DNA of 64,000 bases from an uncultured bacterium (GTDB lineage Bacteria; Bacteroidota; Rhodothermia; Rhodothermales; UBA10348). Both the position numbers and the translations under genes were made by a program. Below, piece by piece: positions 8,908 to 64,000 of this stretch (positions are counted from its first letter, which is position 1; every line of letters starts with the position of its first letter). The notes beneath the pieces were generated by a model that saw nothing but the letters and a program-made list of their open reading frames with translations, made no database searches and was not told the DNA's origin. Where the stretch lies: assembly GCA_943788505.1 (NCBI GenBank), contig CALSQR010000002.1, positions 569,213-633,212 on the forward strand. Direction: 5' to 3'.

Positions 8908-9164
8908 TGTCAGGGGAGTGATGAAGAAGGGCGATGTACGCGAGGTGGGGAAATTGGTTCAGGTCGAAACCTTGGATCAAGGTGAGACAGGAATTCGCAC
9001 TCTGAGACTCGAAATTCTGGAAATTTTATGGATTGATACGCAAAAAAGGGGAATCCCAACGTAATCCTCTTTGTGTCCGGTCCAAATTCTGAACTGGCAC
9101 GCTTTGTGCAATACGCAGATCGTCTGGACATCCGCTCACCGCCTACCTCGTATTTCGACGCGCC

Positions 9165-9560: not shown

Positions 9561-9624
9561 AGTTGGACGTGCATATCGGTCACATTCGATAGACCCAAGC
9601 ATGCAGCCTGCCTTCTCCCGCCAA

Positions 9625-12581: not shown

Positions 12582-12586
12582 CAGGA

Positions 12587-13879
12587 CTACCCTCCGATCT
12601 GTACCAAATGGTACGATTTCTTGCCTTTGCGAAGCACAAACAACTCACCTTCGATAGCTTGATCGATCGTCATGCGAGCATTTTCATCTTCAATGCGCTC
12701 TCCATTGAGAAATAATCCTCCTTGTCGGATGAGCCGTCGGGCCTCACCATTTGATGAGGTGATCTCAGCCTGAGAGCATACGTCGAGCATTCCCATTCCC
12801 TCTCCTTCGAGGGCTTCCTTAGCTAACATGATCGATGGGACGTCCTCAAAAATGTCCCTCAAGTCCTTCACTCCTAGGTTTTCCATTGAGCCACCAAAAA
12901 GTACCTTCGAGGCCATCTCTGACTTCGCGAGCTCGCTCTCACCGTGCAGCGCTGTCGTGATATGGCGCGCCAGCGTTCGCTGCGCCTCACGAGCTCCTGG
13001 ACGCTCGTTCACTTCAGCCTCAAGGCCGTCAATCTCTTCGCGAGAGAGCCATGTAAAGGATTTTAGGTAGTGGATAACGTCGCGATCGTCCGTGTTCATC
13101 CAGAACTGATAGAACTTGTACGGAGACGTGAGTTCTGGATCGAGCCAAACGTTTCCAGCTTCGGACTTGCCGAACTTAGTACCGGATGCATTCGTGACGA
13201 GCGGGAAGACGAGACCGTGAGCCTTGTTACCATTCACCCGACGAATCAGATCTGTACCCGCAAGGATATTTCCCCATTGATCTGATCCACCCATCTGAAG
13301 CGAACAATCTCCACGCCGATTCAGCTCGAGGAAGTCATAGGCCTGTAGCATCATGTAGGTGAACTCCGTGTACGAAATACCATCTTCCGACTCGATCCGC
13401 CTTTTGACGGATTCTTTGGACAGCATGTAGTTCACGGTGAAATGCTTTCCCGTATCGCGCAGGAAATCGATCAGCTGCAATTGACCGAGCCAGTCATGAT
13501 TATTTTCGATGCGCGCAGGATTGCCTTCCCGTTCGAAGTCGAGAAAATGAGATAACTGGGCTTTGATGCCCGCAATATTCTCTTCGACTTTCTCCTTATT
13601 TAGCAGTTGACGCTCAGCCGTCTTTCCACTCGGGTCGCCAATAAGGCCGGTTCCTCCGCCAACTAGTGCAATCGGGGTGTGCCCAAAACGCTGTAGGCGC
13701 GCCAATCCCATGATGGGCAGTAAGGAGCCGACATGCAGGCTGGCTGCCGTAGGATCAAATCCGATGTAGGCCGTGACCGACTCTTTTGCGAGCAGGTCCT
13801 TCAGACCCGGCGTTGCATCGTAGAGCAAGCCCCGCCATTCGAATTCGTCGTAGATGTTGCCCTTGGCACTCATGGTCAC
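12587..13879 (-). CDS. tyrS: Tyrosine--tRNA ligase
   Basis: HIGH-type motif (LHVGSLLPI), KMSKS-type motif (KFGKS) and a C-terminal S4 domain. Confidence 0.9.
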   Translation of the reverse strand: MTMSAKGNIYDEFEWRGLLYDATPGLKDLLAKESVTAYIGFDPTAASLHVGSLLPIMGLARLQRFGHTPIALVGGGTGLIGDPSGKTAERQLLNKEKVEENIAGIKAQLSHFLDFEREGNPARIENNHDWLGQLQLIDFLRDTGKHFTVNYMLSKESVKRRIESEDGISYTEFTYMMLQAYDFLELNRRGDCSLQMGGSDQWGNILAGTDLIRRVNGNKAHGLVFPLVTNASGTKFGKSEAGNVWLDPELTSPYKFYQFWMNTDDRDVIHYLKSFTWLSREEIDGLEAEVNERPGAREAQRTLARHITTALHGESELAKSEMASKVLFGGSMENLGVKDLRDIFEDVPSIMLAKEALEGEGMGMLDVCSQAEITSSNGEARRLIRQGGLFLNGERIEDENARMTIDQAIEGELFVLRKGKKSYHLVQIGG

Positions 13880-23645: not shown

Positions 23646-23718
23646 GGGGCTATAGCTCAGCTGGTAGAGCGCTTGAATGGCATTCAAGAGGTCAGCGGTT
23701 CGACTCCGCTTAGCTCCA
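23646..23718 (+). tRNA. tRNA-Ala (anticodon GGC)
   Basis: Cloverleaf GGGGCTA-TA-GCTCAGCTGGTAGAGC-G-CTTGA-ATGGCAT-TCAAG-AGGTC-AGCGGTTCGACTCCGCT-TAGCTCC-A, with a G3:U70 pair. CCA is not encoded. Confidence 0.9.
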
Positions 23719-23723
23719 CATTT

Positions 23724-46709: not shown

Positions 46710-47810
46710 GTGCCTGTTTACCTTCATGCTGCCCGGACCATCGTCCCGGAAACCTCCTATACCCAGGATGAGGCAGGCGAAGTCATGCTACGCTCGCTGG
46801 ATCCTGAAAGCCGTGCTGGACGGCTTGTCCGGCGCATCTACCGGCATTCTGGCATCGAGAAACGGCACAGCGTCATTCGCGACTTGAAAGAGCCGGCCGA
46901 TGGCAACTTGTTCTTTTCGAAGGAGGGCAAGTTCTTATCCCCCTCTACCGGCACTCGGAATGACGTCTACGCCCGGGAGTCACGTCCGCTCTTTGTAGCA
47001 GCTGCGAAGGCTGCCATCGACGCGAGCCCCGAGCATGAGGCCTATGACGTTACGCATGTCATTACGGTGTCCTGCACCGGATTCAATGCGCCCGGACCCG
47101 ACTATTTTATTGTTCGAGACCTGGGTTTGAAGCCGGAAGTCCGCCGCTTTCACATCGGCTTTATGGGTTGCTATGCCGCGTTCCCAGCGCTCCGCATGGC
47201 CCAGGCCTTCTGTGAAGCAGACCCGAATGCGGTTGTGTTGATCGTCTGTTTGGAGCTCTGCTCCTTGCATTTGGAACCGTCCGAAGAAATCGACGACATC
47301 CTGGCCTTTTCTGTGTTCGCAGATGGTGCTGCCGGTGTCATTGTAAGCGCCCGAGAACCCGGTTCGAAGGGCGCGCTGCGCATTGACGCTCTAGAATCAA
47401 CTATCGCACCGGACAGCGAAAGTGACATGGCCTGGACGATTGGAGATAAAGGATTCAAAATGGTCCTCTCCACGTATGTGCCGAAGGTCCTGGAATCCAA
47501 CGTGAAAGACGTCGTGGATAGCGTCCTCACGCCATCGGGACATACGATGGAAGACATCGACCAATGGGCGATCCACCCCGGCGGTCGCGCCATTCTTGAC
47601 CATGTGGCTAGTGGTCTTGACCTAGCTGCCGATGCACTCGATACCTCACGCGCCGTTCTACGCGATTATGGCAATATGAGCAGCGCAACCGTCCTGTTCG
47701 TACTCTCTGCCATGCTGGATGACGAAGCCGTCAAGGAAGATGACCATATTTTGGCGATGGCGTTCGGACCCGGCCTCACCGTTGAAACAGGTCTTTTTAC
47801 ACGCGTCTGA
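46710..47810 (+). CDS. Type III polyketide synthase (chalcone/stilbene synthase family)
   Basis: Active-site Cys context (VSCTGFNAPGPD), the GFMGCYAAFPALRMA segment and His/Asn regions (IHPGGRAILD, FGPGLT). Confidence 0.85.
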   Translation: MPVYLHAARTIVPETSYTQDEAGEVMLRSLDPESRAGRLVRRIYRHSGIEKRHSVIRDLKEPADGNLFFSKEGKFLSPSTGTRNDVYARESRPLFVAAAKAAIDASPEHEAYDVTHVITVSCTGFNAPGPDYFIVRDLGLKPEVRRFHIGFMGCYAAFPALRMAQAFCEADPNAVVLIVCLELCSLHLEPSEEIDDILAFSVFADGAAGVIVSAREPGSKGALRIDALESTIAPDSESDMAWTIGDKGFKMVLSTYVPKVLESNVKDVVDSVLTPSGHTMEDIDQWAIHPGGRAILDHVASGLDLAADALDTSRAVLRDYGNMSSATVLFVLSAMLDDEAVKEDDHILAMAFGPGLTVETGLFTRV

Positions 47811-48506
47811 ATGCCCACTCTGTTCTTGTCATCCCGCCGCGAGGATCTCGTCGAGCTCATGGACGATCCGGAGTGCGACAGGGAGTTGCTGGAAAACACC
47901 TACCGGTGGTTCGAAAAACTGAACCCTCTTCTGGCCAGGTGGCGAAGCGTCTACTGCCATAGAATTCGCCCCTTGCTCGACCCAACCACGTCGACCCGCA
48001 TTCTTGATGTTGGTTGCGGTGGTGGCGACTTGGCCAGGCAGTTGGCTCGATGGGCAGCACAAGATGGCCTGAAGGCTGACATCACAGGCATCGACCCCGA
48101 CCCCAGAGCGATACACTTCGCCCAGTCTCGACCGAATCCAGACGATGTCCACTTCTTGGAACTCCATTCAGCGGATCTGGCGCGCCGAAATGCGACGTTC
48201 GATATTATCCTGTCCAACCACGTCCTGCATCATATCAAAGATGAGCATTTGGTCGGGCTGATGAAGGATTGCGAAGCCTTGAACGCCCGGCTCGTGATCC
48301 ACAATGACATCAATCGAGATGACCTTGCATGGCTGCTGTTCTGGCCAGTTGGCCTCGTTTGTAGGAAGTCCTTCATCTTGTCCGATGGTTTGCGCTCCAT
48401 CCGCCGTTCCCGGACCGCCCACGAACTCGACCGGATCGCACAAACCGGCTGGTCAGTCGAGCGTCTTTTCCCGTTCCGCTGTCTCCTCATCTTTGAATCG
48501 GAATGA
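47811..48506 (+). CDS. SAM-dependent methyltransferase
   Basis: Motif I ILDVGCGGGDLARQL. The gene directly abuts the PKS stop codon. Confidence 0.7.
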   Translation: MPTLFLSSRREDLVELMDDPECDRELLENTYRWFEKLNPLLARWRSVYCHRIRPLLDPTTSTRILDVGCGGGDLARQLARWAAQDGLKADITGIDPDPRAIHFAQSRPNPDDVHFLELHSADLARRNATFDIILSNHVLHHIKDEHLVGLMKDCEALNARLVIHNDINRDDLAWLLFWPVGLVCRKSFILSDGLRSIRRSRTAHELDRIAQTGWSVERLFPFRCLLIFESE

Positions 48507-49648
48507 CCAGTAACGTGATCATTGTGGGTGGTGGGCCAATCGGGCTATATCTGGGGTGTCTTCTCCGCAATAAGGGACTCGAATGTCTGATTCTCGAAAA
48601 GCGGGTCGAGCGCAGCACCCACTCTCGCTCCATCGGCATCCACCCACCCGCGCTTCGCCAGTTGGCACAAGTCGGCATTGCAGATGATCTCGTCAAAAGA
48701 GGCATCAGGGTTAAGGAGGGTGATGGCTATCTCGGCTCCAAGCCCCTGGGAAGCTTGCCCTTCTCATTGTTGCCGCCTCCTTACTCATTTGTGCTGACCC
48801 TTCCACAACACGAAACGGAATCGCTCCTGGAAGCCCGCTACATTGAGCTTGGCGGTCGATTGGAGAAAGGAGTCAGTGTGACAGGACTGGAACAGGACGC
48901 GGGCTCGGTCGATGTCATCGCAACGAGATCTTCAGGCGAAGAGAGGCTAACCTGCGATTGGCTCATCGGCTGTGATGGCCGAAACAGCACGGTCCGGGGC
49001 CTCCTTTCCATTCCGATGCTCGGATCGTCCTACAACGACCATTACATGATGGGAGACTTTGAGGAGGCTCGAGAGCAGTCCGCTCGCGCAGCAATCCATC
49101 TGGGTTCGAAAGGGGTCGTAGAGTCGTTCCCCTTGGGCCATGGGCTCCGACGATGGGTCGCACGGGTCGAGCAGCCCCACAAGAGCGCTACCCATGCAGA
49201 TCTCGTGGGCTTGCTCACTAGGCACGTTCAAGAACGGACTGGTGTGACTCTGGCTCATGACGCCTGTATCATGACAAGTGCCTTCACAGCCGAACGATTC
49301 GAAGCCAAGGAATTCGCTTCCGGCCGCGTTATCCTAGCAGGCGATGCCGCGCACATCATCAGCCCCATTGGCGGACAGGGCATGAATCTCGGATGGCTGG
49401 ATGCCCAACTACTTGCTGAACTGCTTCACTCGAAGGACGGAGTTGCACTCAAACCCGAAGCAATTCAAGCAGCCTACGAGCCCGTTCGACGCCGATCTTT
49501 CCGCCGGGCTGCCCGCCGAGCAGAACTGAATATGTGGATGGGGCGGTCAGGATGGCTCTACCCCGCGCGTGCGCTCATGGCGCGACTGATACTGAGCCGA
49601 CCATTGCGCGGCTATTTCGTTCGGCTATTCACTATGCAGGACCTTTGA
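48503..49648 (+). CDS. FAD-dependent monooxygenase (UbiH/aromatic-ring hydroxylase family)
   Basis: Rossmann motif VIIVGGGPIGLYLGCLL, a DG motif (CDGRNSTVR) and the GD motif (AGDAAHIISPIGGQGMNLG). The start overlaps the methyltransferase stop in an ATGA arrangement. Confidence 0.8.
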   Translation: MTSNVIIVGGGPIGLYLGCLLRNKGLECLILEKRVERSTHSRSIGIHPPALRQLAQVGIADDLVKRGIRVKEGDGYLGSKPLGSLPFSLLPPPYSFVLTLPQHETESLLEARYIELGGRLEKGVSVTGLEQDAGSVDVIATRSSGEERLTCDWLIGCDGRNSTVRGLLSIPMLGSSYNDHYMMGDFEEAREQSARAAIHLGSKGVVESFPLGHGLRRWVARVEQPHKSATHADLVGLLTRHVQERTGVTLAHDACIMTSAFTAERFEAKEFASGRVILAGDAAHIISPIGGQGMNLGWLDAQLLAELLHSKDGVALKPEAIQAAYEPVRRRSFRRAARRAELNMWMGRSGWLYPARALMARLILSRPLRGYFVRLFTMQDL

Positions 49649-50593: not shown

Positions 50594-50629
50594 CAAAAAA
50601 ACGCTCTTCCCGATATCGAAAAGAGCGTT
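50594..50629 (-). terminator. Rho-independent terminator on minus strand, immediately 3' of the tRNA fragment
   Basis: Stem aacgctctt / aagagcgtt with an A7 run on the plus strand, which is a U7 tail on minus-strand RNA. Confidence 0.55.
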
Positions 50630-50651
50630 CGTGACCGCTAGATGGTCAATG

Positions 50652-50696
50652 TGGAGCCAATGAGCGGACTCGAACCGCTGACCTGCTCATTACGAA
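50652..50696 (-). other. tRNA 3'-half fragment (anticodon loop to CCA; anticodon-loop sequence UUCGUAA suggests tRNA-Thr(CGU)), attR-like
   Basis: Minus-strand sequence ttcgtaa-TGAGC-AGGTC-AGCGG-TTCGAGT-CCGCT-CATTGGC-T-CCA. The T-arm, 3' acceptor strand and CCA are perfect, but there is no D-arm or 5' acceptor strand upstream. Confidence 0.6.
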
Positions 50697-51376
50697 AAAG
50701 TGGCGACGGTGGCGACAATGGCCCCGAATAGCCATATACGCCTATTCCGATATGTATACCAGGGTAGATCAGGGTAGCTTTGGACGATAAGTCGGGAACC
50801 CCTTCGGGAACCACTTCAAGCACCCATAAGAACTTCGGGGCGGGAACGACGAATCGAATCCAACGATCCTGAAAATACTCTGATCAGAAAACAGCGACTG
50901 CCTGTAGACCTGCTTTCCTAGCCACGAATTTCCACTATTGCGCGGCTGAAAAGAAGGAAAGCTTACAAGTTCTCACAAATTTCCGAGGTCACTCAAGAAG
51001 GTTTCGATCAATCGTTTGCTGGACTTATTCAAGTAAGCCCAGAACCCTACAATAATGATCGCGGTGTAAGCTTCCCTACAGTGGGCGAACTCGAATGGTG
51101 GAAAAACCCCTTACCTTCGAACCATGCTGAATTTCCGACTCAGTGAGACGAAGATCGTTTCCGTCCGCGTCCGCAATGCGCGCGGAGAAAAGGTCAACCC
51201 CCGCTGGAGCACCCTCCATCAAGAGAACCATCACCGTTCTCAATTTCATTGACGCATGTGTGACAATGTACACGGCAATCGTCCGTGAGATTGCCGGAAA
51301 GGACGCCAAAAATGATCTGGGTAACAGTTTTCCGATATTCAGCGGCAGGGCGATCAGCGTGTGGCGACTTGAGAGG

Positions 51377-51718
51377 CTACACGGCATCGTCACCTCTTTC
51401 ACCAGAAGATACGCGGACTGCATCCAGTACCGGCGTGACGTAGATCTTACCGTCCCCACGGAGACCCGTATGGGCCTCTCGTTGGATGATTTCAATGATC
51501 TCATCCACCATGCTGTCCTCGACCACGGTTTCGATCTTGACAACGGCGACGTAATCCACCAAGTCTTCGGTAAAGCTGTGGGGCACGTCTTGAGCCCGAC
51601 TACGGCCGAATCCTTTCATGTCGCAGATACTCACTCCCGTGAGCCCTTCAATGTGGTGAAAGGCACGCGTCACGGCGGAGAGCTTGTGTGGCTTGATGTA
51701 GGCTTGGATCTGTTTCAT
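51377..51718 (-). CDS. P-II family (GlnB-like) signal-transduction protein, czc-associated
   Basis: 113 aa closely matching GlnB-like motifs (IKPHKL, KGFGRSRAQ, GDGKIYVTPVLDAVRV..GE.GDDA). The stop overlaps the czcA start. Confidence 0.8.
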   Translation of the reverse strand: MKQIQAYIKPHKLSAVTRAFHHIEGLTGVSICDMKGFGRSRAQDVPHSFTEDLVDYVAVVKIETVVEDSMVDEIIEIIQREAHTGLRGDGKIYVTPVLDAVRVSSGERGDDAV

Positions 51719-54700
51719 GGTTTTCTAGTGACTTGAGTAATGGATTCGGATGGTGGGGGACCGTCGCTGAACCATCGGTAAAGTGCCGGCACGACCAGCA
51801 GCGTCAGCACGGTGGAGGTGACAAGGCCGCCGACCACGACGGTTGCCAAGGGGCGCTGGACTTCGCTTCCCGTCGTCGTGGAAAAGAGGAGCGGAATGAG
51901 TCCGAGCGCGGTAGTAACAGCCGTCATAAGGACCGGGCGCAGGCGCAGGAGGGCACCGTCCACACTTGCCCGGTCCATAGGCGTGCCGTCCCGAATGAGC
52001 TGGTTGAGGTAGGTGACCAGCACCATTCCATTTTCCAGCGCGATCCCGAATAAGGCAATGAACCCGACCGACGCGGGGACTGAAAGGTTCTGGCCCGTTA
52101 TCCAGAGCGCTACAATGCCGCCCACAAGCGCCAGCGGAATGTTGAGCATGATGAGCGCTGCGTTCTTCAGCGAGTTGAAACTCGCGTACAGCATGAGCAA
52201 CACGATCAGAAGCGTGATGGGCACGACCACCATGAGCCGCTTGTTGGCTTCCTGTTGCAACCGGAATTGCCCACCCCATGTGGTAAGATAACCGGTCGGG
52301 AGCTCCACCTCCGAACGGATGACCTTTTGGGCCTCCGCTACGAATGAGCCAATGTCCCTGCCCTCCACATTCAGCTGGACGGTAATGAAGCGCTGGTTGT
52401 CCTGCCTCGTGATTTGTCGCGGTCCGACGACCTCGACAATCGTGGCCAGCGCGCCCAGTGGGACGGTACCTCCTCCGGGGAGCGGAATGAGGAGATTGGA
52501 AATGGCCTCCGGCGTTGAGCGCGCCTCCTCTTCGAAGCGGACATAGATGGGGAATCGGCGGATGCCTTCAAAAATCTGACCAGCCTCGGCCCCTCCAATG
52601 GCCGTGGCCACGGTACGCTGCACATCCGCCACGTTGATACCGTACCGGGCGATGGCTTGGCGATCGATGTCAATTTGGAGCTGGGGCGTGCCCGTGATTT
52701 GATCGGCTTGAACGTCGGCGGCGCCTTCCACGGTGTTCAAGGCAGCTGCAATTTCATCCGCCTTTGATTTGAGCAGGTCGAGATCGTCGCCAAACAGTTT
52801 GATAGCAAGCTCGGCCTTTACACCCTCGAGGAGTTCATCCACCGTCATCTGGATCGGCTGGCTGAAGTTTGTCAATACGCCCGGCACCTCACCCAACTCG
52901 TCGCGAATGGCGGAGAGCAGTTCGGCTTGGTTGTCAAACCGCCACTCGTCTTCCGGCGATAGCACCAGGTATATTTCGGCGGAGTTGATGGGGTCGGCGT
53001 GTGCGCCCACTTCGCCGCGACCGATGCGACTGACGACATCCGTGATTTCAGGAATGGCCATCAAGCGGCGTTCCACACGCAGCGTGGTCGCTTTGCTCTC
53101 CGTGATCGAAATGGACGGCGCCATGGTCAATCGCATGACGATGGTCCCCTCCTGAAGGGTTGGCGTGAATTCACTCCCGAGCTGCGGGAAGACGACGGCG
53201 CCGACTACAAGGAGCCCGGCAGCGAGGCCGACAGCCCAAGACCGGTGCCGGACAAAGGTGGCCACGATGGGGCGGTACCAGCCCGTAATCCGGTCCAGCA
53301 GTCGGTTGGCCAAGGGTTCCTTTCCGGGCTTTCCGTTGCTGGACTGCGTCTGTGGGGAGCGCATGAAGAAATGCGAGAGTACCGGGGCCAGCACAATCGC
53401 ATACACGAGCGATCCCAGCATGGCCAGCGCGACCGTGTAGGCCAACGGCCGAAAGGTCTTACCCTCGACGCCCTGCAGTGTGAAGAGAGGCAGGAATACA
53501 ACGATGATAATGAGCACGGCGAATGCCACGGGTCGTGCTACTTCGGCACAGGCCCGCGCCACGACGTGTACGCGGGGCTCTTCCGGACCGGCCTCTTTGA
53601 GCATCCTGTCCACGTTTTCAACCATGACAATGGCCCCGTCCACCATCATTCCGATGGCGATGGCCAAGCCTCCAAGGCTCATGAGGTTCGCCGATATGTT
53701 GAACTGCCCCATGAAGATGGCCGCAAACAGGACCGAGAACGGAATGGCAAGGGCGACCACGACGCTCGGACGCCACGAACCCATGAAAGCCACCAGAACC
53801 AGAAGAACCAGGAGAATTCCCTGCCAGAGCGCGGTTGTGACCGTCGCGACGGCAGCCTCCACGAGCGTTTTCTGCTCGTAGTAGGGGACGATGTTGACGC
53901 CCTCGGGAAGCGCCTCGTTGATGGCAGCGAGTCTGGTCTCGACACGGCCAATGACGGTCGAGGAATTGGTGCCATACAGCTTGACGACCATACCCGAGAC
54001 GACTTCTTCAACGCCGCCGCGTGTCTGCAGGCCGCGCCGGATGGCGCCGCCAACCTGGACGGTGGCCACATCTTTCACGAAAACCGGCGTGCCGTCGGCC
54101 GTTCTGACCACAACGTTTTCGAGGTCGGTTATGCCAGTGGCGAGTCCGACGGATCGGACCACGAACTGCTCCGCATTCTGCTCGATGTACTGCGCGCCAA
54201 CATTGAGATTGTTTTCCTCGAGCGCATGTGTCACCTCTGCCAGCGTGACGCGGTACTGGAGTAGGGCCTCCGGCCGGACCACGACCTGGAATTGCCGCTC
54301 GTATCCCCCGATTCCAAGGACCTCTGTCACCCCAGGAACGGTCTGGAGACTCGTTTTCACGATCCAGTCCTGCATCGTGCGCAGTTCCTCGAGCGAATAT
54401 TGGCCTGTCGTATCGTCCAGATAGTAGAACAGGACCAGGCCCATTCCAGTCGAAATCGGTCCCATTTCGGGCTCGCCGAACCCGGGAGGGATGGTCTCAC
54501 GCGCCTCGTTGAGCCGCTCTCCGACGAGTTGGCGGGCGAAGTAAATGTCCGTTCCGTCTTCGAAATAGACGTTGACGACGGACAGGCCGAAGTTCGAAAC
54601 AGAGCGGACCTGCTCCACATTGGGAAGCCCGTTCATGGCGGTCTCGACGGGATACGTCACGTAACGCTCAACTTCCGCGGGGGCGAGGCCTTCCGTGACG

Positions 54701-54888
54701 GTAAAGACCTGGACGAGAGAGGGAGAAACGTCAGGAAAGGCGTCGATCGGGAGGCCCCGATACGTCCACCAACCGGCGACAATAACGATGGCACCGAGGA
54801 CGAGCACGAGGAGCTTGCTCTGCAGCGTAAATTGGATAATTTTGTTCATATCAGTGGGCATGGCCTCCTTCCAATTCGCTCTTACCAA
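51715..54888 (-). CDS. czcA: Heavy-metal efflux RND transporter, CzcA/CusA family
   Basis: 1057 aa, 12 TM and two large periplasmic loops, with typical HME-RND segments (AIGMMVDGAIVMVEN, LALENGMVLV). Confidence 0.9.
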   Translation of the reverse strand: MVRANWKEAMPTDMNKIIQFTLQSKLLVLVLGAIVIVAGWWTYRGLPIDAFPDVSPSLVQVFTVTEGLAPAEVERYVTYPVETAMNGLPNVEQVRSVSNFGLSVVNVYFEDGTDIYFARQLVGERLNEARETIPPGFGEPEMGPISTGMGLVLFYYLDDTTGQYSLEELRTMQDWIVKTSLQTVPGVTEVLGIGGYERQFQVVVRPEALLQYRVTLAEVTHALEENNLNVGAQYIEQNAEQFVVRSVGLATGITDLENVVVRTADGTPVFVKDVATVQVGGAIRRGLQTRGGVEEVVSGMVVKLYGTNSSTVIGRVETRLAAINEALPEGVNIVPYYEQKTLVEAAVATVTTALWQGILLVLLVLVAFMGSWRPSVVVALAIPFSVLFAAIFMGQFNISANLMSLGGLAIAIGMMVDGAIVMVENVDRMLKEAGPEEPRVHVVARACAEVARPVAFAVLIIIVVFLPLFTLQGVEGKTFRPLAYTVALAMLGSLVYAIVLAPVLSHFFMRSPQTQSSNGKPGKEPLANRLLDRITGWYRPIVATFVRHRSWAVGLAAGLLVVGAVVFPQLGSEFTPTLQEGTIVMRLTMAPSISITESKATTLRVERRLMAIPEITDVVSRIGRGEVGAHADPINSAEIYLVLSPEDEWRFDNQAELLSAIRDELGEVPGVLTNFSQPIQMTVDELLEGVKAELAIKLFGDDLDLLKSKADEIAAALNTVEGAADVQADQITGTPQLQIDIDRQAIARYGINVADVQRTVATAIGGAEAGQIFEGIRRFPIYVRFEEEARSTPEAISNLLIPLPGGGTVPLGALATIVEVVGPRQITRQDNQRFITVQLNVEGRDIGSFVAEAQKVIRSEVELPTGYLTTWGGQFRLQQEANKRLMVVVPITLLIVLLMLYASFNSLKNAALIMLNIPLALVGGIVALWITGQNLSVPASVGFIALFGIALENGMVLVTYLNQLIRDGTPMDRASVDGALLRLRPVLMTAVTTALGLIPLLFSTTTGSEVQRPLATVVVGGLVTSTVLTLLVVPALYRWFSDGPPPSESITQVTRKP

Positions 54889-56107
54889 GCTCCGCCTTCA
54901 GCGCAAACACCCCGGAGGCGACGTAGCGCTCGCCTGGCTCCAGGCCACTTGAAATGGCCACCTGACCACCCGCGCGGTCGCCTGCTTGGACAGCACGCGG
55001 CTTGAACCCTTCCTCTGTCTGCACGAATACGACGGTCCTGCCCTCGACATCGACCAGCGCCGTGGCAGGGATCAACACGGCTACCTCAACGGCATTGATG
55101 GTCAGTAGACCGGTCACGAACTGACCGGGTCGCAGTCTGCCGGCTGGATTCGGGACAACGGTGCGGGCAATGGCTGTTCGGGTCTCCTCCCCGACTATGG
55201 GGCGGACATAGGAGATGGTTCCGCGAGTGCGGGGCTGCCCCGCACCGGCGTCAATGACAACTTCCTGACCCTCCCGGACGGTACCCAGATCCCGCTGATA
55301 AACCGAGAGGTCAGCCCAGACGGTGGACAGATCGGCCACTTCGAACGCCTCGGTGGCAGCTTCGACGGCCTCCCCGACTACGATGTGTTTCTCGATTACG
55401 CTTCCCGAAATGGGAGCGGTAAGGGGGTAGGCCACCAAGCTGCGTTCTTCTTCGCGAGGCAACGCTTCGATGTAGTCATCAGAAAAACCCAGTGCAATGA
55501 GTTTTTGACGCGCGGACCGCGTCCGGATACGCGCTTCGGCGTTCGCTTGTCGGGCTTCCAGGAAGTCGGCCTCGGAGGTGATTTCCTGATTATACAGTCG
55601 TTCTTCCCGCTCGAATGACGCGCGGGCCAGTTCCTGACGTTCGATTGCCGCGAGATAGTCCGCCTTGAGGTCTGCCAGCTCCCGGCTCTCAATGACCGCC
55701 ATGGTTTGACCGGCCTGGACATAGCTGCCCACGTTCGCACTTACGCTCCTGACAACGCCGGAAACGCGAGGGGTAACATGGGCATACCGGTCTTCGTTGG
55801 CACGTATTTCACCAGGAAGATTCTTCTCGACCGACATGGTGCCCGGTCCGGCTGTTTGGACATCAATCCCGAACTCCTCGATCTCCTCGGCGGTCAGCGT
55901 GACGAGATCTACTGCCTCGCCCGTTCCTTCGCCCGCCTGTTCGACTATCGGGACAGCAATCCTGTTTTCTGCGGTCCCGTACGGGCCGGGCGCAAGCCAC
56001 CAGACGACAAGGACGATTGCCAACAGTCCGATTCCCGTGGCGACCAGCTTCGCCCGACGGCTCATGGACTTCAGTTGGGTTATGGTGTTCTTGGTATTCA
56101 TGGTCAA
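54851..56107 (-). CDS. czcB: RND efflux membrane-fusion (periplasmic adaptor) protein, CzcB-like
   Basis: N-terminal TM helix, coiled-coil and beta-barrel MFP architecture. The gene overlaps the czcA start. Confidence 0.8.
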   Translation of the reverse strand: MTMNTKNTITQLKSMSRRAKLVATGIGLLAIVLVVWWLAPGPYGTAENRIAVPIVEQAGEGTGEAVDLVTLTAEEIEEFGIDVQTAGPGTMSVEKNLPGEIRANEDRYAHVTPRVSGVVRSVSANVGSYVQAGQTMAVIESRELADLKADYLAAIERQELARASFEREERLYNQEITSEADFLEARQANAEARIRTRSARQKLIALGFSDDYIEALPREEERSLVAYPLTAPISGSVIEKHIVVGEAVEAATEAFEVADLSTVWADLSVYQRDLGTVREGQEVVIDAGAGQPRTRGTISYVRPIVGEETRTAIARTVVPNPAGRLRPGQFVTGLLTINAVEVAVLIPATALVDVEGRTVVFVQTEEGFKPRAVQAGDRAGGQVAISSGLEPGERYVASGVFALKAELGKSELEGGHAH

Positions 56108-57474
56108 TTCTGGTTCGGGAGGATGCTACGAAGGGCATCTTCCACGGCGTGGATAGGGGTGGCAATAAGCCGCTCGACAGCTGCGCGCGCCTGGTGATAG
56201 TCTGCCAAGGCGTCGATGTAGGCGTTCTGCGTCTCGATGAGGGCACTCTGTGCGTCAAGTACGTTGAGCAGGTCGAACTCTCCTTCGTGGTAGCCCGTGA
56301 GGATGCCTTCAGAAGCTGCTCTGGCATTAGGAAGCGCATCGTCCCGCAGCATGCGCGCGGCATCGACCGACACAGCCAGCGTGCCGTAAAGGGTGGTGAG
56401 CTCCCACTCGGCACGCAGCAACGCCGATTCAGCGTCAGCTTCTACGGCCGAAATGCGTGCCTCGGCGGCCCGGATGGCACCTCTGTTCGTGTCGAGAAAG
56501 GGGATCGGAATCGAAATGCCCGATGTGACGGCGGCCTCTCCCACTTCATTGAAATAGGCTGCGCCGAAACGGAACGTGGGGTCCGGAATTCGGCTGGCGC
56601 GTTCCAAGCGGGCGTGTGCACGTGCCTCGTCAAGGATGGCGGCGTATTGCGCCAATTCCGGATTGAGTTGCAGGAGCGGGGTGAGTCTCTCGAGTTCTGG
56701 CACCGGGGCGAGCGTGGAGAGGTCCCCCTCCACGTCGATGGCAGCCGCTTCACCCCCGAAAGTGGAAGCGAGGCGGGCTCGGGCACTGAGCACGGCCCGG
56801 CGCGCGCGCTCAAGGACGGTCACGGCCGTCACGGCCGCAACGCGAGCCCGGCGAGCCTCTAGTGGAGAGACGGCTCCTTCGGCCGCTCGACGTTCAACCG
56901 CATCGGCCAGCCGTCTGGCAATCTCTCCCTGCTCTTCTGCGAGAGCAAGCCGCGCTTCTGCCGCCAACACGGACGTGAAAGCCTGACGGACCTCCGTGAC
57001 GACATTTAGCCGCGTCGATTCGACGTCCCACGCGGCACGGTCCGAGCTGCGCGCGGCCACATCGGCGCGGGCGCGACGGTCGCCGCCCAGCTCCAATGTT
57101 TGTGAGAATCCTCCGCCGACTTCCAGTGACTGGACGCCTGACCGCGATCCACTACCGCCAAACTCATGGACCCCGGCTTCCAGCTCCGGGTTGGGCGGCC
57201 GGCCCGCCTGGTAGGCGTCGTGTTCCCGGGCTTGCAGTTCGAAGGAAGCGGACCGGAGGGTCGGATTGTGTTGGATGGCGAGGGCGACTGCCTCGGCCAG
57301 GGTGAGCGGGCCTTCCAGCGTGACCGGGTCGTCGATACTCTCCACCGGGTGCGCGGAAATGAGGGGACGGGGCTCCGGATAGGAGGCGTTGTACGAGGAT
57401 GCGCAGCCAGCAGACATGCCAGCCAGCACAACCAGGACCGACGCAAGCGTCGGCCCGACAGGGTTGCGGATCAT
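56104..57474 (-). CDS. czcC: Outer-membrane efflux protein, TolC/CzcC family (lipoprotein)
   Basis: Lipobox (LAGMSAGC) and two long helical repeats typical of OEP. The gene overlaps the czcB start. Confidence 0.75.
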   Translation of the reverse strand: MIRNPVGPTLASVLVVLAGMSAGCASSYNASYPEPRPLISAHPVESIDDPVTLEGPLTLAEAVALAIQHNPTLRSASFELQAREHDAYQAGRPPNPELEAGVHEFGGSGSRSGVQSLEVGGGFSQTLELGGDRRARADVAARSSDRAAWDVESTRLNVVTEVRQAFTSVLAAEARLALAEEQGEIARRLADAVERRAAEGAVSPLEARRARVAAVTAVTVLERARRAVLSARARLASTFGGEAAAIDVEGDLSTLAPVPELERLTPLLQLNPELAQYAAILDEARAHARLERASRIPDPTFRFGAAYFNEVGEAAVTSGISIPIPFLDTNRGAIRAAEARISAVEADAESALLRAEWELTTLYGTLAVSVDAARMLRDDALPNARAASEGILTGYHEGEFDLLNVLDAQSALIETQNAYIDALADYHQARAAVERLIATPIHAVEDALRSILPNQN

Positions 57475-57561
57475 AGGACTTGTATTCTTGATCGTGTATG
57501 ATTCCGCCAGGAACGCTCACGAACGTGAGCGCCAGACGGATGAACGGGGATCAAGAAAGGC

Positions 57562-57921
57562 TCAGATCAGCAAGACGACGCTGCGATGGAGCGGGGTTTG
57601 TCCGTACGTCGCAGGAGGCGCGGTACGGGCTGGGGGAAGGGAATGAACCGGGGCCGGGAGGTACTCCGCGACCGCGATGATTGCAAACGATGCAGGACCA
57701 CTTTCCGTCTTGAACGAGCTGCACTTGGCATCATTGCCCGTCGGAATGGGTACATCCACGCAGTCTTCTGCATGTTCGATTTCCGCTTCCACATGCCCGT
57801 CCATCCCGAAACAAAGCACGACGTTGCTGACGTGCGGCCCGAGGGGGGCGAGCGTCATAAGCGCCATCAGCAGCCAGGCTACTGGGGCCAAACGCGCCTT
57901 GATGGTCTGGATATGGGGCAT
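57562..57921 (-). CDS. Small secreted His/Cys-containing protein (possible periplasmic metal-binding), first gene of czc operon
   Basis: Start placed at MPHIQ..., giving a signal peptide. Contains HVSNVVLCFGMDGHVEAEIEHAEDC. Confidence 0.3.
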   Translation of the reverse strand: MPHIQTIKARLAPVAWLLMALMTLAPLGPHVSNVVLCFGMDGHVEAEIEHAEDCVDVPIPTGNDAKCSSFKTESGPASFAIIAVAEYLPAPVHSLPPARTAPPATYGQTPLHRSVVLLI

Positions 57922-58196
57922 GAAAAGGACGGGTGGTCTGGGTAGTCGGTCACACCGACGATCCCCTTGGTAGCGTTTCCATGGAGCAAAGTTCCTGTGT
58001 TCGCGTTTCCGTGACATCCGGCAGCGGCGCCTGCCAGCAGTCAGCAGTCAGCTGAGAGTGTTTTTCACCGTATTGCATTGTACTGGATTCATATGGATGC
58101 ATATTCCGCTGTTCCTGTCCACCCATTCTGATCCAACAGTTCTAGTAATTCCGACTGTTTGTTACCAGGACGCAGCATGTTGATGATGTTGGAGCT

Positions 58197-58337
58197 TCAG
58201 GATTTCTCCTGGATCGATTCAGGTTTCACGCCATTGCGTTTTCGAAGCGAATCGTGATTGAGCGTAATTCGGTTTGCGTTGTGTACGAGTCGATCCAAGA
58301 TGGCGTCTGCCATTGTGGCATCACCTATTGCAGTGTG
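58197..58337 (-). pseudogene. IstB-like (IS21 helper ATPase) C-terminal fragment
   Basis: The minus-frame translation ...[34 protein letters not shown]...* matches the IstB C-terminus (ILDRLLHH...I.G.SYRLK). No upstream ATPase core is present. Confidence 0.45.
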
Positions 58338-58453
58338 TCATCCTGCAACTGTCTTTCGTTGAGAATTGTGACGACGCCCATATTGAACACGAGACCCAGA
58401 GCGTATCCTCCGGCCTTTCCTACGCATTGAGCTCCTCCCGTTAATTTACCCAG

Positions 58454-58663
58454 TCAGAAGTAGAGAATCGGGCGTCTTTCGGTGATATTCGTGGGCATAT
58501 GCTGATATGGCTTGGACTCTTTCAGGGGCTGTAGCTCGTCCAGCCGCTTGATGAACAGCAGATAGGTCAACTGTTCGATGACCGACAGCGGGTTCGAGAT
58601 GCCGCCAGACCACATCGTGTCCCATATGCGGTCGACCTTGGATTTGAGTTCGCCTGTGATCAT
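58454..58663 (-). pseudogene. N-terminal fragment of a type I R-M HsdM-like / N6-adenine DNA methyltransferase
   Basis: 69 aa reading ELKSKVDRIWDTMWSGGISNPLSVIEQLTYLLFIKRLDE, which fits the HsdM N-terminal domain. The ORF stops before any catalytic domain. Confidence 0.5.
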
Positions 58664-58927
58664 GCGTTTCTGTCGTTTGGAAGGGCCTGATACTTATGAA
58701 TGACGATAAGACCTGATTTCTCAACGCTCATTGTTGATCAAGGTAACACCGCCTGCGTCACTGATTTCGTCTCGAGAAATCTTGGGAAGGGCGTGTCCCC
58801 TGCGACCCCGGACGGGTAGCTACCCATAATGATCATAGAAGGTGGAAGTATACAAACCAGCTGCGTCCGCTCGCTACTCAGCGACCGCCTTCCGCGGACA
58901 GTAGCCCCAGACACGTAGGGAATTAAA

Positions 58928-59401
58928 GTGTCTGAATCTTACCGGCCCGTACCGGGCCATTCACATTACATCGTGTCCAATTCCGGCATCGTACAGAGCT
59001 TACCAAGGGAAATCAGAACGATCCACGGGGTTACCCGAAAACTCCACGGCAAAGTGCTGTCTCCAAGTCAAACTCAAGACGGATACAGAAAGGTCGCCAT
59101 TTGCGGTATGGGGAAGTCACGAACTCTCTATGTTCACTTTCTTGTAGCTATGGCCTGGCTTGGTCCTCCACCAGGCCCAGTTGGCTGTCGCCGGGGTGAA
59201 TACCAAGTCCATCACATCAACGGCGCTCGAACGGATAACAGAGTCGTCAATCTCCAGTGGATCCTGGTCGAGGATCACCATCGATTGCCTCGACGGAAGC
59301 GAATGAAAGGGTCGGAGACTTTAAAACCTCAGGCTCAAGATCGCAAACCGATTCAAGGACACGAACGTGCTTCCAGGTCACGCCCGCAATCACATCTTTA
59401 A
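58928..59401 (+). CDS. HNH homing-type endonuclease (NUMOD4 + HNH_3), probably C-terminally disrupted
   Basis: YIVSNSGIVQSL...GYRKV (NUMOD4-like) and HHINGARTDNRVVNLQWI (HNH). The sequence after about 59270 is low-complexity and basic, which is atypical. Confidence 0.65.
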   Translation: MSESYRPVPGHSHYIVSNSGIVQSLPREIRTIHGVTRKLHGKVLSPSQTQDGYRKVAICGMGKSRTLYVHFLVAMAWLGPPPGPVGCRRGEYQVHHINGARTDNRVVNLQWILVEDHHRLPRRKRMKGSETLKPQAQDRKPIQGHERASRSRPQSHL

Positions 59402-59549
59402 CCGTCCGAATATGGATGTCGAATTCAATTGCGAGGTCTTGATTGGAAGTCCCTTGCGATGCCTTTCTGCGGAGATCTTGGACTCGAGGCTCGTTAAGTT
59501 TGGATCTGCCATTTTGAGATCCTGTCGGGATGTATCGGGATTTCTGCAC
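59364..59549 (-). pseudogene. HNH-endonuclease C-terminal HTH-tail fragment in inverted orientation
   Basis: Minus-strand translation GSQNGRSKLNEPRVQDLRRKASQGTSNQDLAIEFDIHIRTVKDVIAGVTWKHV matches the usual tail after an HNH motif. It is bounded upstream by a stop codon and starts at GTG. Confidence 0.45.
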
Positions 59550-59763
59550 TTAGGTCGTCCAATAGATGTGAAGGTGTGACTCCTATTATGCGATGCGAAT
59601 AGCTTGGCGATATCGTTTCGCCAGTTTTGACACTATTCGCCCCGATGCCACATCGCATATCCTTTGCGGCAAGAATCACCAGAGTATCAGTTTACACTGA
59701 CCCTACATAGTTCGTTACGCCCCCCCCCCCGGGGGTCAAAATCAACGAACTCCAATCATGTAC

Positions 59764-59796
59764 GAAGCCCCGACACCAAACAGGTGTCGGGGCTTC
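59764..59796. other. Perfect 14-bp stem-loop (terminator-like)
   Basis: gaagccccgacacc aaaca ggtgtcggggcttc followed by tgcatttctg. Confidence 0.4.
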
Positions 59797-59874
59797 TGCA
59801 TTTCTGCCCGGATTTACCGGGCAAGGCGGTGCTTGAACACTGCCATTTCAACCATCAAACGCATTTGAGGTGCG

Positions 59875-60440
59875 ATATGATGACTTCAACAAAGGTACGT
59901 CACGACCTATCAAACAGTGACGCCAAAGAGACTCAAGACGAATACACTCGCCGTCTTGTCACCGAGGCCAAGCTTTGGAGCAGCTATGCCCAGCGCAACA
60001 GCAACTTGGGTGCAAGCAGACTCAGCAACATGGCATTGGAAGCAACAGCCTTCTGTTTGAGACACAACGCCGCGTCGATTGCCATACCAACCAAGCTGGT
60101 TGGTACTAAATCTCTCCAGGAAGCGCTTGAGTCGCTTGTAATGGCTCAGGCGGCTCCATGGCGCCAATTAGAACTAACGGCGTCCAGAGGGCGCATAGAA
60201 GCCTATTACGAAGGCGTTCTCCTCGGCTGGCTATGGTCTGGCCACGTCTGGGTGTGGCCTCTTTTGACGGTAGGGATTGAAGCCAGGTTGATTGCAGTGA
60301 CGGGTACAGATGCCGACTGGAAGTGGCTCGGGTGCAATGTGGTCTTAACCAATGTGGCAAAGGCCATTGACGCCGTCACCGTACGAATGTCGACACAGGA
60401 GACAACCGACATAACTCACTTGAGCCGTGTGAAAGGATAG
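59875..60440 (+). CDS. Hypothetical protein (island cargo, upstream of RadC-like gene)
   Basis: 188 aa from MMTSTKV. The longer track ORF (59664) would run through a C11G5 homopolymer and the hairpin, so it was rejected. Confidence 0.3.
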
Positions 60441-60535
60441 GCGAACTGGTAGGCCAATCAATTTCAAAACAACCAGCCAATATGAAGGGCCGGGGTGCAA
60501 TGCATCTCGGCCCTTCTCCATTTAGGAGAATTACC

Positions 60536-61003
60536 ATGAACGATCAAATGAACATCTTTTCAGAAAGTGTCCCTCAGTACTCCGTTCGCCTCGTTCGCGA
60601 ACGGCCAGTTGATGGGCCACTCATCATCAATCCTATCAGTGCTACGGATGCTGCAACCGAGATCCTACAGGACTATGACAGGGAAGTGTTTCTAGCACTC
60701 TTTCTTTCAACCAGCGGGAAGCTCTGTGGCTTCAACATCTGTCACATAGGTTCGCTTTCTGAAAGCCTGGTTCGAATTGCGGACGTCTTCAAAGCAGCCA
60801 TCCTATCCAATGCTGCTGCTGTGATATTCGCTCATAACCACCCATCCGGTAATCCGGAGCCTAGCAAGGAAGACATTGCCGTGACGAAAAGGCTGGTCGT
60901 AGCAGGGGACATCATTGGGATACCCGTGCGTGACCATGTGATTATTACATCTCGGGGTGAGTCTACCAGTCTTGCCATGAGAGGGTACCTAGTCCTGGAT
61001 TGA
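60536..61003 (+). CDS. RadC-like JAB/MPN-domain protein (UPF0758)
   Basis: JAMM motif region HNHPSGNPEPSKEDIAVTKRL and good spacing to an AGGAGA ribosome-binding site before the ATG at 60536. Confidence 0.75.
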   Translation: MNDQMNIFSESVPQYSVRLVRERPVDGPLIINPISATDAATEILQDYDREVFLALFLSTSGKLCGFNICHIGSLSESLVRIADVFKAAILSNAAAVIFAHNHPSGNPEPSKEDIAVTKRLVVAGDIIGIPVRDHVIITSRGESTSLAMRGYLVLD

Positions 61004-62045
61004 GCTGCCGGTTGATCGGCCGGGATATCGTGTCCCGGCCTATCGACGCTCTTTTCGTTGTACTGTCTGCCTCCCCAACATTGTCACGTGTGTAGATGTC
61101 ACAGCAAGGCGGCCTGAAGAAACAACGCGGCGTGGTGACCAAAACGTGCGAATAGTCACTTTTACAATCGCCGACCCAGCATGTGAGAGAGCACAAGCTG
61201 GAAGAAATAGTCAGCCTATTTCACCATCGATGGTGCTCAAATCGCTGTAGTGGTTCATGGTAAGTGAATCACATGTTTTCATCCGCACGTCCTAGTGCGA
61301 TGTTGATCACTGGCCGCTCTAAGAATCATAGAAGCCCTTAGTTAAGCATCCCTTTGTTCTTGGTCCGGGATTTGTTTGGCCTGTCCCGGAATCCGGTGGT
61401 GAGAATGATCTTGATAAGCGTCTATCCAGGTTGTCTGTCCAGAATGGCTTGTTGACCCAGTCAATCAATACCTGCTGTCCCACCGTCTTTTGTGTGCTTA
61501 CAAGGCTAGCCTAGCCAGTCAAGGCAGTTGGTGGAGACTGATAATCTGGTATGGCCCCCTTCTAGAGCCGCCTTCGACAATATTAACGGTGTGGGGACGG
61601 GGAGCAAAGCAGACACGGCGGTAGTCAAGCAAACTCGGCCCGGTGCTCTCAGTCAGCCGAATTTATCCCCACGAGAATCTTTTGCCCTATCTGGCCCAAT
61701 GACCGTCGCACGGTAAAAGTTTAGCCGGGACTTCGCCGAATGCCCGATAGGAAGGTTGTCTACTTGCATTATGTGCTTCTCAATATTAAAAGGTGTAGAT
61801 ACATTTTCAGGCCTCAGTAAACTCAGAATGCCGGCCCCAGGAGAAGCGGTACCACGGGTCAACTTTGCGGTAAGAGTCAAAAGCGTCAATGTCTATTAAT
61901 CTAGTCACTGCTCCGCCGCAAGAGGGCTTCGCGACCCCCGATTAGTCACCCTTCTAGGAGTGCGGATCATCAGCGAAACCATGGGGTGTAGAGAGAACAA
62001 TATCATTCCGATTAGGGTAAGTAATCGGAAGAAAACACGGTACAG

Positions 62046-63029
62046 ATGAGCACACAAACTGACCCCACCGTACGCGTTCCAGCATCGCTTGTAAGCGCCA
62101 GTAACTCTGCCCAAGAGTACGCCCAGGCAGCACGTTCAAAGAACACCAAGAGGGCCTACCGGGCCTCCTGGAGAGACTTCGAAGACTGGTGCGAGCAAGT
62201 GGGTATAGTCGCTCTTCCTGCAACGCCTGAGACGGTCGCTATGTACCTATCCGCTCGCGCGTTACAGCTAAAAGTGGGTACGCTGGGCCACCGTCTTGCA
62301 GCGATCGCCGTTGCTCACAAAGTGGCCGGCTATCCCAATCCCACATCAAAGCGGGAAGAACCGCTTGCTAGCATATGGGCGGGCATTAAGCGTAAAAGGG
62401 GACAGCGCAAGACTCAGAAGATGCCGCTACTTGAAGCGCACTTGCGCAAGATCATCAAATTGAAAGACGCGGAAACCCATTCGGCAATTGGCGAGCTCCG
62501 TTGGATCCGTGATCGCGCTCTATTGCTAGTTGGTTTTGCTGGTGCACTTCGGCGTTCCGAACTCGTGGATATCGACATAAAGGATCTGACATTCGACGAG
62601 CGTGGCCTTCGGCTCTATATCCCACGGTCCAAAACGGATGTCGGTGGAGAAGGTGTTGAAATCGGTATTCCGGCAACCGGTACTGCGACGTGCCCAGTGA
62701 GAGCGGTCAAGGAGTGGATGGAAGCCGCTGGGCTTGACGAAGGCAAAGTGTTCAGAGCCGTTCGTCACGGCGGGATCATCACTGAGAGCCTTTCTACACG
62801 GGTCGTGGCGAACCTGGTAAAGCGTTATGCCGGTGACATCGGATTGGACCCAGGAGGCTTTTCAGGGCACAGCCTGCGTTCCGGACTCATCACTCAGGCC
62901 GCTACGAATGGGGCCAGAGAAGTAGACATCATGAGGCATTCGAGGCACAAGTCTGTTCCTGTCCTACGACAGTACGTCCGCAAGGCGACCGTGTGGGAGG
63001 ACAATGCTGCTGCGAAGGCGCTGGGCTGA
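62046..63029 (+). CDS. Tyrosine site-specific recombinase / integrase
   Basis: N-terminal SAM-like domain, followed by the catalytic R...HSLRSG...RHSRH...LRQYV tetrad (R-H-R-Y). Confidence 0.85.
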   Translation: MSTQTDPTVRVPASLVSASNSAQEYAQAARSKNTKRAYRASWRDFEDWCEQVGIVALPATPETVAMYLSARALQLKVGTLGHRLAAIAVAHKVAGYPNPTSKREEPLASIWAGIKRKRGQRKTQKMPLLEAHLRKIIKLKDAETHSAIGELRWIRDRALLLVGFAGALRRSELVDIDIKDLTFDERGLRLYIPRSKTDVGGEGVEIGIPATGTATCPVRAVKEWMEAAGLDEGKVFRAVRHGGIITESLSTRVVANLVKRYAGDIGLDPGGFSGHSLRSGLITQAATNGAREVDIMRHSRHKSVPVLRQYVRKATVWEDNAAAKALG

Positions 63030-63099
63030 CTCCTTAGGTTGCCCAGGCACATTCATATCAATACCATGCAGGGTAAGAAAGTAATCACGTGGTGCTGAA

Positions 63100-63951
63100 A
63101 TGGACCTAGAACAGCTGAATACGCTTTTGGATCATTCTAGAACGTTTTACGATCAAGTAAGAGATACCTCAAGCTCGATTCAACACAGCCCCGTAACAGG
63201 TTCAGTCGCAGCTGTAGAGCTTGAATCGCTGGCTGCTCAAGGCAACCATGTGGCTCTCACCACCGCCTACTCACAGGCATATCTGTATAAAGAAGCAGCA
63301 TTGTGTGGGTTTGATGGCCTCCTTCGAACTCTGACCCCCCCGGCTCTTCCAATCTCTCCATGGTATTGTGCAAGGCCGATATTGGAGGCCTCTGCCCATT
63401 GTTGCTGGCTGGCGGATACCGACATCACGAAAGAGGAGCGCTTGGCTCGATCCTATTCTATCCGGTTCGAATCAGTTTTCCAGATAGGTTTATCAGAAGG
63501 GTTGTGGGGAAGATCACAGAGCGATCTAGTTGATGACAGGCCTTTTCAAGGCATCATCGATTCGGCGAATTCTCTTGGGTTGACAATCAAACGGAATAAC
63601 GGTGGACACTTGCAATGGATAGGTGTCCAGAAACCAAAGTTTTCGGAATTGGTCAAGATGCGCTTGCCAAACGCGAGTCAGTATGGAAAAATGTCACTCA
63701 TCGTGCATGCACATCCTCTAGCCTTGATAAGACGGCTCGCGAGTACCGTTTCTACAGTGCAACATGGCCGTCAAGACCTAATCGAGGGATTACTAGAGAT
63801 CCCTGATGAAGACATCGTACACATCTTAAGGTTCTCGGCAGATGCTTTACTCATTGCCGTTAAGCAAATCTTGATCCTGAACGGCTTTCATGTAGCGCCG
63901 GTCACCGATCATTTGGATTCCTTGATAAACAAAATCGCTCTGCCAGGCTGA
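63100..63951 (+). CDS. Hypothetical protein adjacent to integrase
   Basis: 283-aa ORF with no recognised domain. Confidence 0.35.
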   Translation: MDLEQLNTLLDHSRTFYDQVRDTSSSIQHSPVTGSVAAVELESLAAQGNHVALTTAYSQAYLYKEAALCGFDGLLRTLTPPALPISPWYCARPILEASAHCCWLADTDITKEERLARSYSIRFESVFQIGLSEGLWGRSQSDLVDDRPFQGIIDSANSLGLTIKRNNGGHLQWIGVQKPKFSELVKMRLPNASQYGKMSLIVHAHPLALIRRLASTVSTVQHGRQDLIEGLLEIPDEDIVHILRFSADALLIAVKQILILNGFHVAPVTDHLDSLINKIALPG

Positions 63952-64000
63952 AATGCACTGCATTCGTTGTATTACACCCCTCAAAATGAATGGACAATGC

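Follow-up and report, generated by a model that had tools for sequence, protein, structure and literature searches.

We analysed a 64,000-nucleotide stretch of DNA (the window) from an uncultured bacterium, whose Usp homologues place the host in the Rhodothermales. On the minus strand, positions 50652-50696 read TTCGTAATGAGCAGGTCAGCGGTTCGAGTCCGCTCATTGGCTCCA, a sequence of 45 nt that corresponds to the 3' part of a tRNA from the anticodon loop to the CCA end. It contains an anticodon loop of 7 nt, UUCGUAA, with the anticodon CGU, the 3' strand of the anticodon stem (TGAGC), the variable loop AGGTC, a perfectly paired T-arm (AGCGG/TTCGAGT/CCGCT), the 3' acceptor strand CATTGGC, a discriminator T and an encoded CCA. 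The 45-mer has a single site in the window even when 3 mismatches are allowed, with 0 sites expected by chance. No tRNA was called at this site by ARAGORN or Rfam, and the sole tRNA that these programs report in the window is a tRNA-Ala(GGC) at 23646-23719. Only one open reading frame covers the fragment (50638-50823, minus strand, 61 aa), and it has no Pfam match.

Comparison of the 44 nt upstream of the fragment with the 5' half of the tRNA revealed no significant similarity. A decayed 5' half, suggested by the resemblance of GCCATTGTCGC to GCCAATGTAGC, was rejected because 374 of 2000 shuffled sequences scored equally well or better. On the other side, 3' of the fragment, a 14-bp hairpin (50630-50599) is followed by seven T (50601-50595), and the fold has a z-score of -3.7; island-free relatives carry a similar hairpin with T6 at an equal distance 3' of their intact tRNA-Thr. 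The sequence is as an earlier note on this DNA had read it, namely an orphan tRNA 3' half from T-arm to CCA, with no 5' half upstream and with a hairpin and U7 terminator behind it. The features of the region are given below with window coordinates; those past the window end are placed on L001, one of the metagenome contigs by which the window was extended.

50595-50630, minus strand: intrinsic terminator, a 14-bp hairpin followed by T7, assigned to the tRNA gene in its original state (from sequence and fold).
50652-50696, minus strand: displaced 3' fragment of tRNA-Thr(CGU), positions 32-76 including CCA, interpreted as attR, one of the two copies of the 45-bp direct repeat at the island ends.
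50697-64000, no strand: portion of the island inside the window (from extension contigs, repeats and GC content).
50790-50812, minus strand: tandem doublet GGTTCCCGAAG / GGTTCCCGAct, repeated every 12 bp and lying within the island at 95 nt from the core, a putative P-arm site for the integrase (Int).
51377-51718, minus strand: P-II family protein gene, 113 aa, 3' of czcA (family search).
51715-54888, minus strand: heavy-metal efflux RND pump of the CusA/CzcA family (ACR_tran, 1.7e-292; TIGR00914, 1127 bits, above the cut-off).
54851-56107, minus strand: membrane-fusion protein, CzcB/CusB-like (family search).
56104-57474, minus strand: outer-membrane efflux protein, CzcC-like (family search).
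58454-58663, minus strand: 69-aa HsdM_N fragment (Pfam PF12161).
58928-59401, plus strand: HNH/NUMOD4 endonuclease, a cargo gene missing from the related element L016.
59664-60440, plus strand: PD-(D/E)XK-like backbone gene (weak, sub-threshold Pfam match; 77% identical in L016).
60482-61003, plus strand: RadC-like JAB-domain protein, a backbone gene (84% identical in L016).
62046-63029, plus strand: second tyrosine recombinase, 327 aa, a backbone gene (83% identical in L016).
63100-63951, plus strand: 283-aa protein with no family match in Pfam, NCBIfam or PHROGs.
Past the window end, upstream of the integrase gene: 98-aa Xis-like gene that overlaps the start of int-412 by 4 nt.
Past the window end, L001 11348-12586, strand opposite to the tRNA: 412-aa tyrosine integrase (Int-412).

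The extension used metagenome contigs from ENA that encode the 283-aa open reading frame at 63100-63951. Six loci (L001-L006) match the window end at 99.2-100% identity and run past base 64000, and an intact minus-strand tRNA-Thr(CGU) was found in all of them. In L001 this gene lies at 12522-12597, which is equivalent to window positions 65621-65696, 1.6 kb past the window end, and has an Rfam tRNA score of 70.7 bits. Its 3' part (L001 12522-12566) is identical to the fragment at 45 of 45 nt and on the same strand, so the resemblance of the fragment to a tRNA is not due to chance. The identity runs exactly from T32 to CCA; it breaks off sharply at the first anticodon-loop base, upstream of which the sequences are unrelated, and the flanks of the two copies differ on either side. 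On the minus strand, which bears the two copies, the lower coordinate of the fragment places it downstream of the intact tRNA. Because contigs 99.2-100% identical to the window join the two, tRNA and fragment belong to the same replicon; contig_16492 (L004 and L007) covers both ends of the island. The island between the repeats measures 14,969 bp, one repeat counted, and ends at window-equivalent 65665. Its GC content reaches 60-66% over 52-57.5 kb, where the czc cargo lies, against 52-56% in the flanks.

The same tRNA site without an island was found in the metagenome-assembled genome (MAG) GCA_017859335.1 (L012/L013), also of the Rhodothermales and a distant, not conspecific, relative with a Usp 66% identical. 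The order of features there is Usp, tRNA-Thr(CGT), a hairpin with T6, two unknown genes and a cluster of FAD monooxygenase, methyltransferase, type III PKS and DUF6702 genes, which corresponds to the cluster at 46-49.6 kb of the window. Neither an integrase nor a tRNA fragment is present at this tRNA-Thr site, and the two unknown genes are unrelated to the GNAT gene that stands in their place in the window genome. As judged by its gene order, the arrangement amounts to an empty site. The earlier note had proposed an attR-like island boundary, an intact minus-strand tRNA with the same 3' 45 nt beyond base 64000 and a comparison with genomes that lack the island; the 45-nt repeats do bracket an integrase-bearing island, the tRNA lies at the expected side, and in this distant relative it stands directly between the same two neighbourhoods. 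We consider it very probable that the fragment and the terminator behind it are the native 3' end of the tRNA-Thr(CGU) gene, forming attR of an integrative island of 14,969 bp in the chromosome of an uncultured member of the Rhodothermales.

Additional observations were made on the surroundings of this site. The cluster at 46710-49648 of the window (plus strand) encodes a type III PKS, a SAM methyltransferase, an FAD monooxygenase and, first in order, a DUF6702 protein, and it adjoins tRNA-Thr in relatives (L012). When the flanking FAD monooxygenase was compared with 185,579 GTDB species representatives, its relatives showed just 33-40% identity, and exact-protein look-ups of the GNAT gene adjoining the fragment, made with three choices of start, gave no match. 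In another Rhodothermales MAG (GCA_028284865.1; L010 11689-16617), Rad52, Sipho_Gp157 and HTH phage-like genes follow tRNA-Thr(CGT), and from these gene orders the tRNA seems to be a hot spot for insertions within this lineage.

Analysis of the gene content indicates that the cargo of the island is a czcCBA-type RND efflux operon with a P-II gene (51377-57474, minus strand). It shares with CzcCBA/CusCBA heavy-metal RND efflux islands the czcC-czcB-czcA operon accompanied by a small P-II protein, and it is predicted to export heavy metals. The open reading frame at 58454-58663, which holds nothing but an HsdM_N domain, is probably a leftover of a type I restriction-modification methylase gene. 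Twelve island open reading frames (czcA, czcB, czcC and the P-II gene not included) were compared with PHROGs, and no structural, packaging or lysis genes were detected among them; the matches were restricted to the HNH gene, the RadC-like gene ('DNA repair'), the integrases and a weak excisionase. No relaxase, coupling protein or type IV secretion gene was found in the island open reading frames scanned with Pfam or NCBIfam, a scan not exhaustive for small open reading frames. By the gene content of the scanned open reading frames, the island is neither a prophage nor an ICE.

The integrase gene at the junction ends at L001 12586, 65 nt inside the tRNA and antisense to it; of the tRNA it spans the 45-bp core in full and a further 20 nt in the 5' part that derives from the host. 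The protein scores 81.9 bits on PF00589 and matches the phrog_1 integrases at 1.3e-54, with XerC/D and integron NCBIfam scores all far below the cut-off. R213, K237, R301, H324 and Y333 are invariant throughout its family; no Pfam arm-binding domain was detected at its N-terminus, and a scan of IMG/VR gave no relative. The 98-aa protein encoded just before it has weak, sub-threshold matches to excisionases (phrog_66) and HTH_17, from which we infer a possible Xis role.

Homologues of Int-412 at 86% (L016) and 82% identity (L017-L019) overlap tRNA-Thr(CGT) by the same 65 nt and are likewise preceded by the 98-aa gene. These four loci share the chromosomal neighbourhood of the present island (Peptidase_M32, S30AE, DAHP synthase) and differ in cargo. 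A further homologue, 50% identical, lies 77 nt from a tRNA-Lys(TTT). Position 32 of the tRNA is T in both copies here and in L017/L019; the island-free relatives and L016 have C there. The tRNA-Thr of L017/L019 also has a compensatory G-C pair in the T-stem. The regenerated tRNA may be partly element-derived sequence.

A tandem doublet was found near the core at both ends of the island. The motif GGTTCCCGA has just two copies in the 64-kb window, both in the minus-strand doublet at 50790-50812, and at the integrase end the exact GGTTCCCGAAG occurs twice in the same orientation at L001 12420-12442, 80 nt from the core. The doublet at the integrase side is present at the same offset in L016-L019, and a single copy of it lies between the 50%-identical integrase gene and tRNA-Lys in L020/L021. 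In the reconstructed attP, doublets flank the core on both sides. Lambda-type heterobivalent integrases have arm-type sites and an Xis directionality factor; the present element resembles them in its short direct-repeat doublets, which share one orientation and flank the core at distances of 80-95 bp, and in the small HTH-like gene directly upstream of int. The GGTTCCCGAAG doublets are likely to be arm-type binding sites for Int. Int-412 differs from the lambda type in having no detected Pfam arm-binding domain, and the putative binding is proposed from the arrangement of the doublets.

An Rfam match to RAGATH-32 (RF02922) at window positions 50774-50818 (plus strand) covers the doublet and 20 nt beside it. 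With 20.9 bits against a gathering threshold of 41.8 and with the central 40 model positions absent, it is probably a chance match, and RAGATH-32 gave no match at the other arm of the island. In an unrelated 1-kb contig (JGI Ga0114949_10450870; L023 93-300) we observed an identical orphan 45-mer with no 5' half and with its own hairpin and T5. A different doublet, GTGCAAGAAAT, is repeated twice about 90 nt upstream of that orphan, in an architecture like that of the attR in the window, and the orphan probably marks another element family at the same tRNA-Thr site.

The overlap of int-412 with the attachment site shapes the end of the predicted protein. Codon 392 of the 412 in int marks the start of the core, and translation stops within the 5' tRNA segment that derives from the host. 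The stretch between about residue 350 and residue 412 is encoded antisense to the doublet (GTPSGTPS), the element-borne terminator (KKRRSRQRKRR) and the tRNA. This tail of about 60 residues is absent from homologues at 50-58% identity (354-378 aa), and the homologues at 82-86% identity are also of 412 aa. When the island ends were joined in silico, the predicted excised form had 417 aa, with its final 10 residues different, and only the last 5-10 residues would change: the integrated protein ends in ...RMSCSTS (412 aa) and the predicted excised one in ...RKSGDGGDNGPE.

The Myxococcus phage Mx8 has a tRNA-Asp gene as its target. In Mx8, attP is within the 3' coding end of the integrase gene, which acquires a new 3' end on integration (Tojo et al. 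1996; Magrini et al. 1999; PMC6070905), and int genes that extend across attP are documented for Mx8 and SSV (PMC6070905, PMC4383910). The present element resembles Mx8 intP/attP in that the int reading frame crosses the attP core inside its 3' end, so that integration is predicted from the sequence to alter this end (412 aa integrated, 417 aa excised). It differs from Mx8 in that only the last 5-10 residues would change, in that the tail is absent from the 50-58%-identical homologues, and in that the element is not a phage, as judged by the PHROGs comparison of twelve island open reading frames outside czcA, czcB, czcC and the P-II gene. By analogy, the Int tail might act as a sensor of the integration state, with the two endings altering activity or directionality, an effect reported for Mx8, and the 327-aa recombinase having a distinct role in resolution or excision control; we regard this as unlikely. 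Int-412 and its relatives, compared in these respects, are best described as a small family of integrases predicted to target tRNA-Thr(CGU), with a candidate motif for arm sites and an overlap of int with attP like that of Mx8.

The presence of two recombinase genes within one 15-kb island raises the question whether it was built in more than one step. Two elements might have inserted in succession at one tRNA, forming a composite or tandem array from which the middle fragment was lost, so that the fragment at 50.65 kb would derive from the older element. Tandem arrays at tDNAs are known (PMC4383910), and the high-GC cargo is compositionally unlike the backbone. Against this, the inside of the island holds no second fragment (45-mer with up to 3 mismatches) and no 12-mer of the tRNA, and in L016 the counterpart of the 327-aa gene (8612-9571) lies beside the xis-like and int-412 genes and the PD-(D/E)XK-like and RadC genes, which argues for one backbone with two recombinases. 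We therefore consider a succession of insertions very unlikely.

It is highly improbable that the 327-aa recombinase at 62046-63029 inserted the island. The earlier note had pointed to this gene as the integrase of the island, and it does encode a tyrosine recombinase (Phage_integrase with a weak SAM-like N-domain), kept at 83% identity in L016; the integrase at the junction is instead the 412-aa gene outside the window that overlaps the tRNA. The 327-aa gene is 2.6 kb from the junction, whereas in each of four independent contexts int-412 extends into the tRNA and attL. In L017/L019 it survives only as remnants (L017 1-231 and 1945-2061), while the module of xis-like gene, int-412 and tRNA is whole, and its family scores are much below those of Int-412. 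A decayed duplicate of the tRNA gene, a pseudogene formed without site-specific recombination, would accord with the lack of a tRNA call by ARAGORN or Rfam at the site, but its probability is negligible given the 45/45 identity that breaks off at the anticodon loop, the correct orientation and configuration of the fragment relative to the intact gene, the integrase overlapping the intact copy, and the two flanks of one tRNA in the relative being set apart here by exactly the island, which excludes simple tRNA decay.

Under the preferred reading, integration by Int-412 at tRNA-Thr(CGU), a circular element would have carried an attP in which 45 bp reproduce the tRNA between position 32, in the anticodon loop, and the CCA end, and its 412-aa integrase would have recombined this attP with the chromosomal tRNA-Thr gene. 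The anticodon-loop region would be the most likely place of strand exchange. The element-borne copy and an element-borne terminator would then complete the tRNA at attL, beside the xis-like and int genes at window-equivalent 65621-65696, and the native 3' copy would have been moved about 15 kb downstream to 50652-50696. The int gene would read antisense through doublet, terminator and core, with an ending encoded by the host in the integrated state and by the element in the excised state.

The island corresponds to the tDNA islands of Islander (Hudson, Lau & Williams 2015, PMC4383910), in which a regenerated tRNA and a displaced 3' fragment surround a tyrosine-integrase island. All the features by which Islander recognizes such islands (PMC4383910) are present: a full-length tRNA and its cognate fragment on the same replicon; a fragment that is the terminal 3' piece, downstream and in the same orientation; a non-Xer, non-integron tyrosine integrase, Int-412, within or overlapping the interval; a length of 14,969 bp, inside the range of 2-200 kb; and a fragment clear of conserved protein domains, its 61-aa open reading frame included. 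The block of identity, which extends from the first base of the loop (T32) through CCA, assigns the site to the anticodon-loop ('A') class. The size of Islander islands peaks at 13.6 kb, to which this 15-kb island is close (PMC4383910). It differs from them in its uncultured Rhodothermales host, with no close genome among the 185,579 GTDB species representatives, and in its backbone with two tyrosine recombinases. The mechanism is a textbook one that would not surprise a specialist, and the points of note are the overlap of int with attP, similar to that in Mx8, and a backbone with two recombinases. Exact limits are now fixed for a 15-kb island that has added a heavy-metal efflux operon to the genome of an uncultured, marine-type member of the Rhodothermales, which is of use in annotation and when islands are sought in metagenome-assembled genomes.

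The island could be mobile today. The predicted attP junction consists, on the window minus strand, of ...GTCGCCACTTT, the 45-bp core and TATCAAAGCGTCG..., and the predicted empty attB junction of ...GAGCAGCTCA, the core and CATTGACCATCTAGCGG... The island is present in every conspecific contig seen in ENA and JGI, and no excised attP or conspecific empty attB was found in the ENA contigs or among the 4 JGI core matches, a sample from which rare variants could escape. In the JGI metagenomes the 45-mer has 4 loci, of which two are conspecific attL sites, one is an unrelated intact tRNA and one an unrelated orphan fragment; a look-up with Usp gave one further conspecific attL. Variation between strains is concentrated in the cargo: contig_16492 (L004/L007) shows 0 substitutions relative to the window in the chromosomal flanks, and its 74 substitutions are all within 54-58.9 kb (czcB, czcC and around the HsdM_N remnant). 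These differences could result from recombination with another czc allele or from a mixed-strain assembly.
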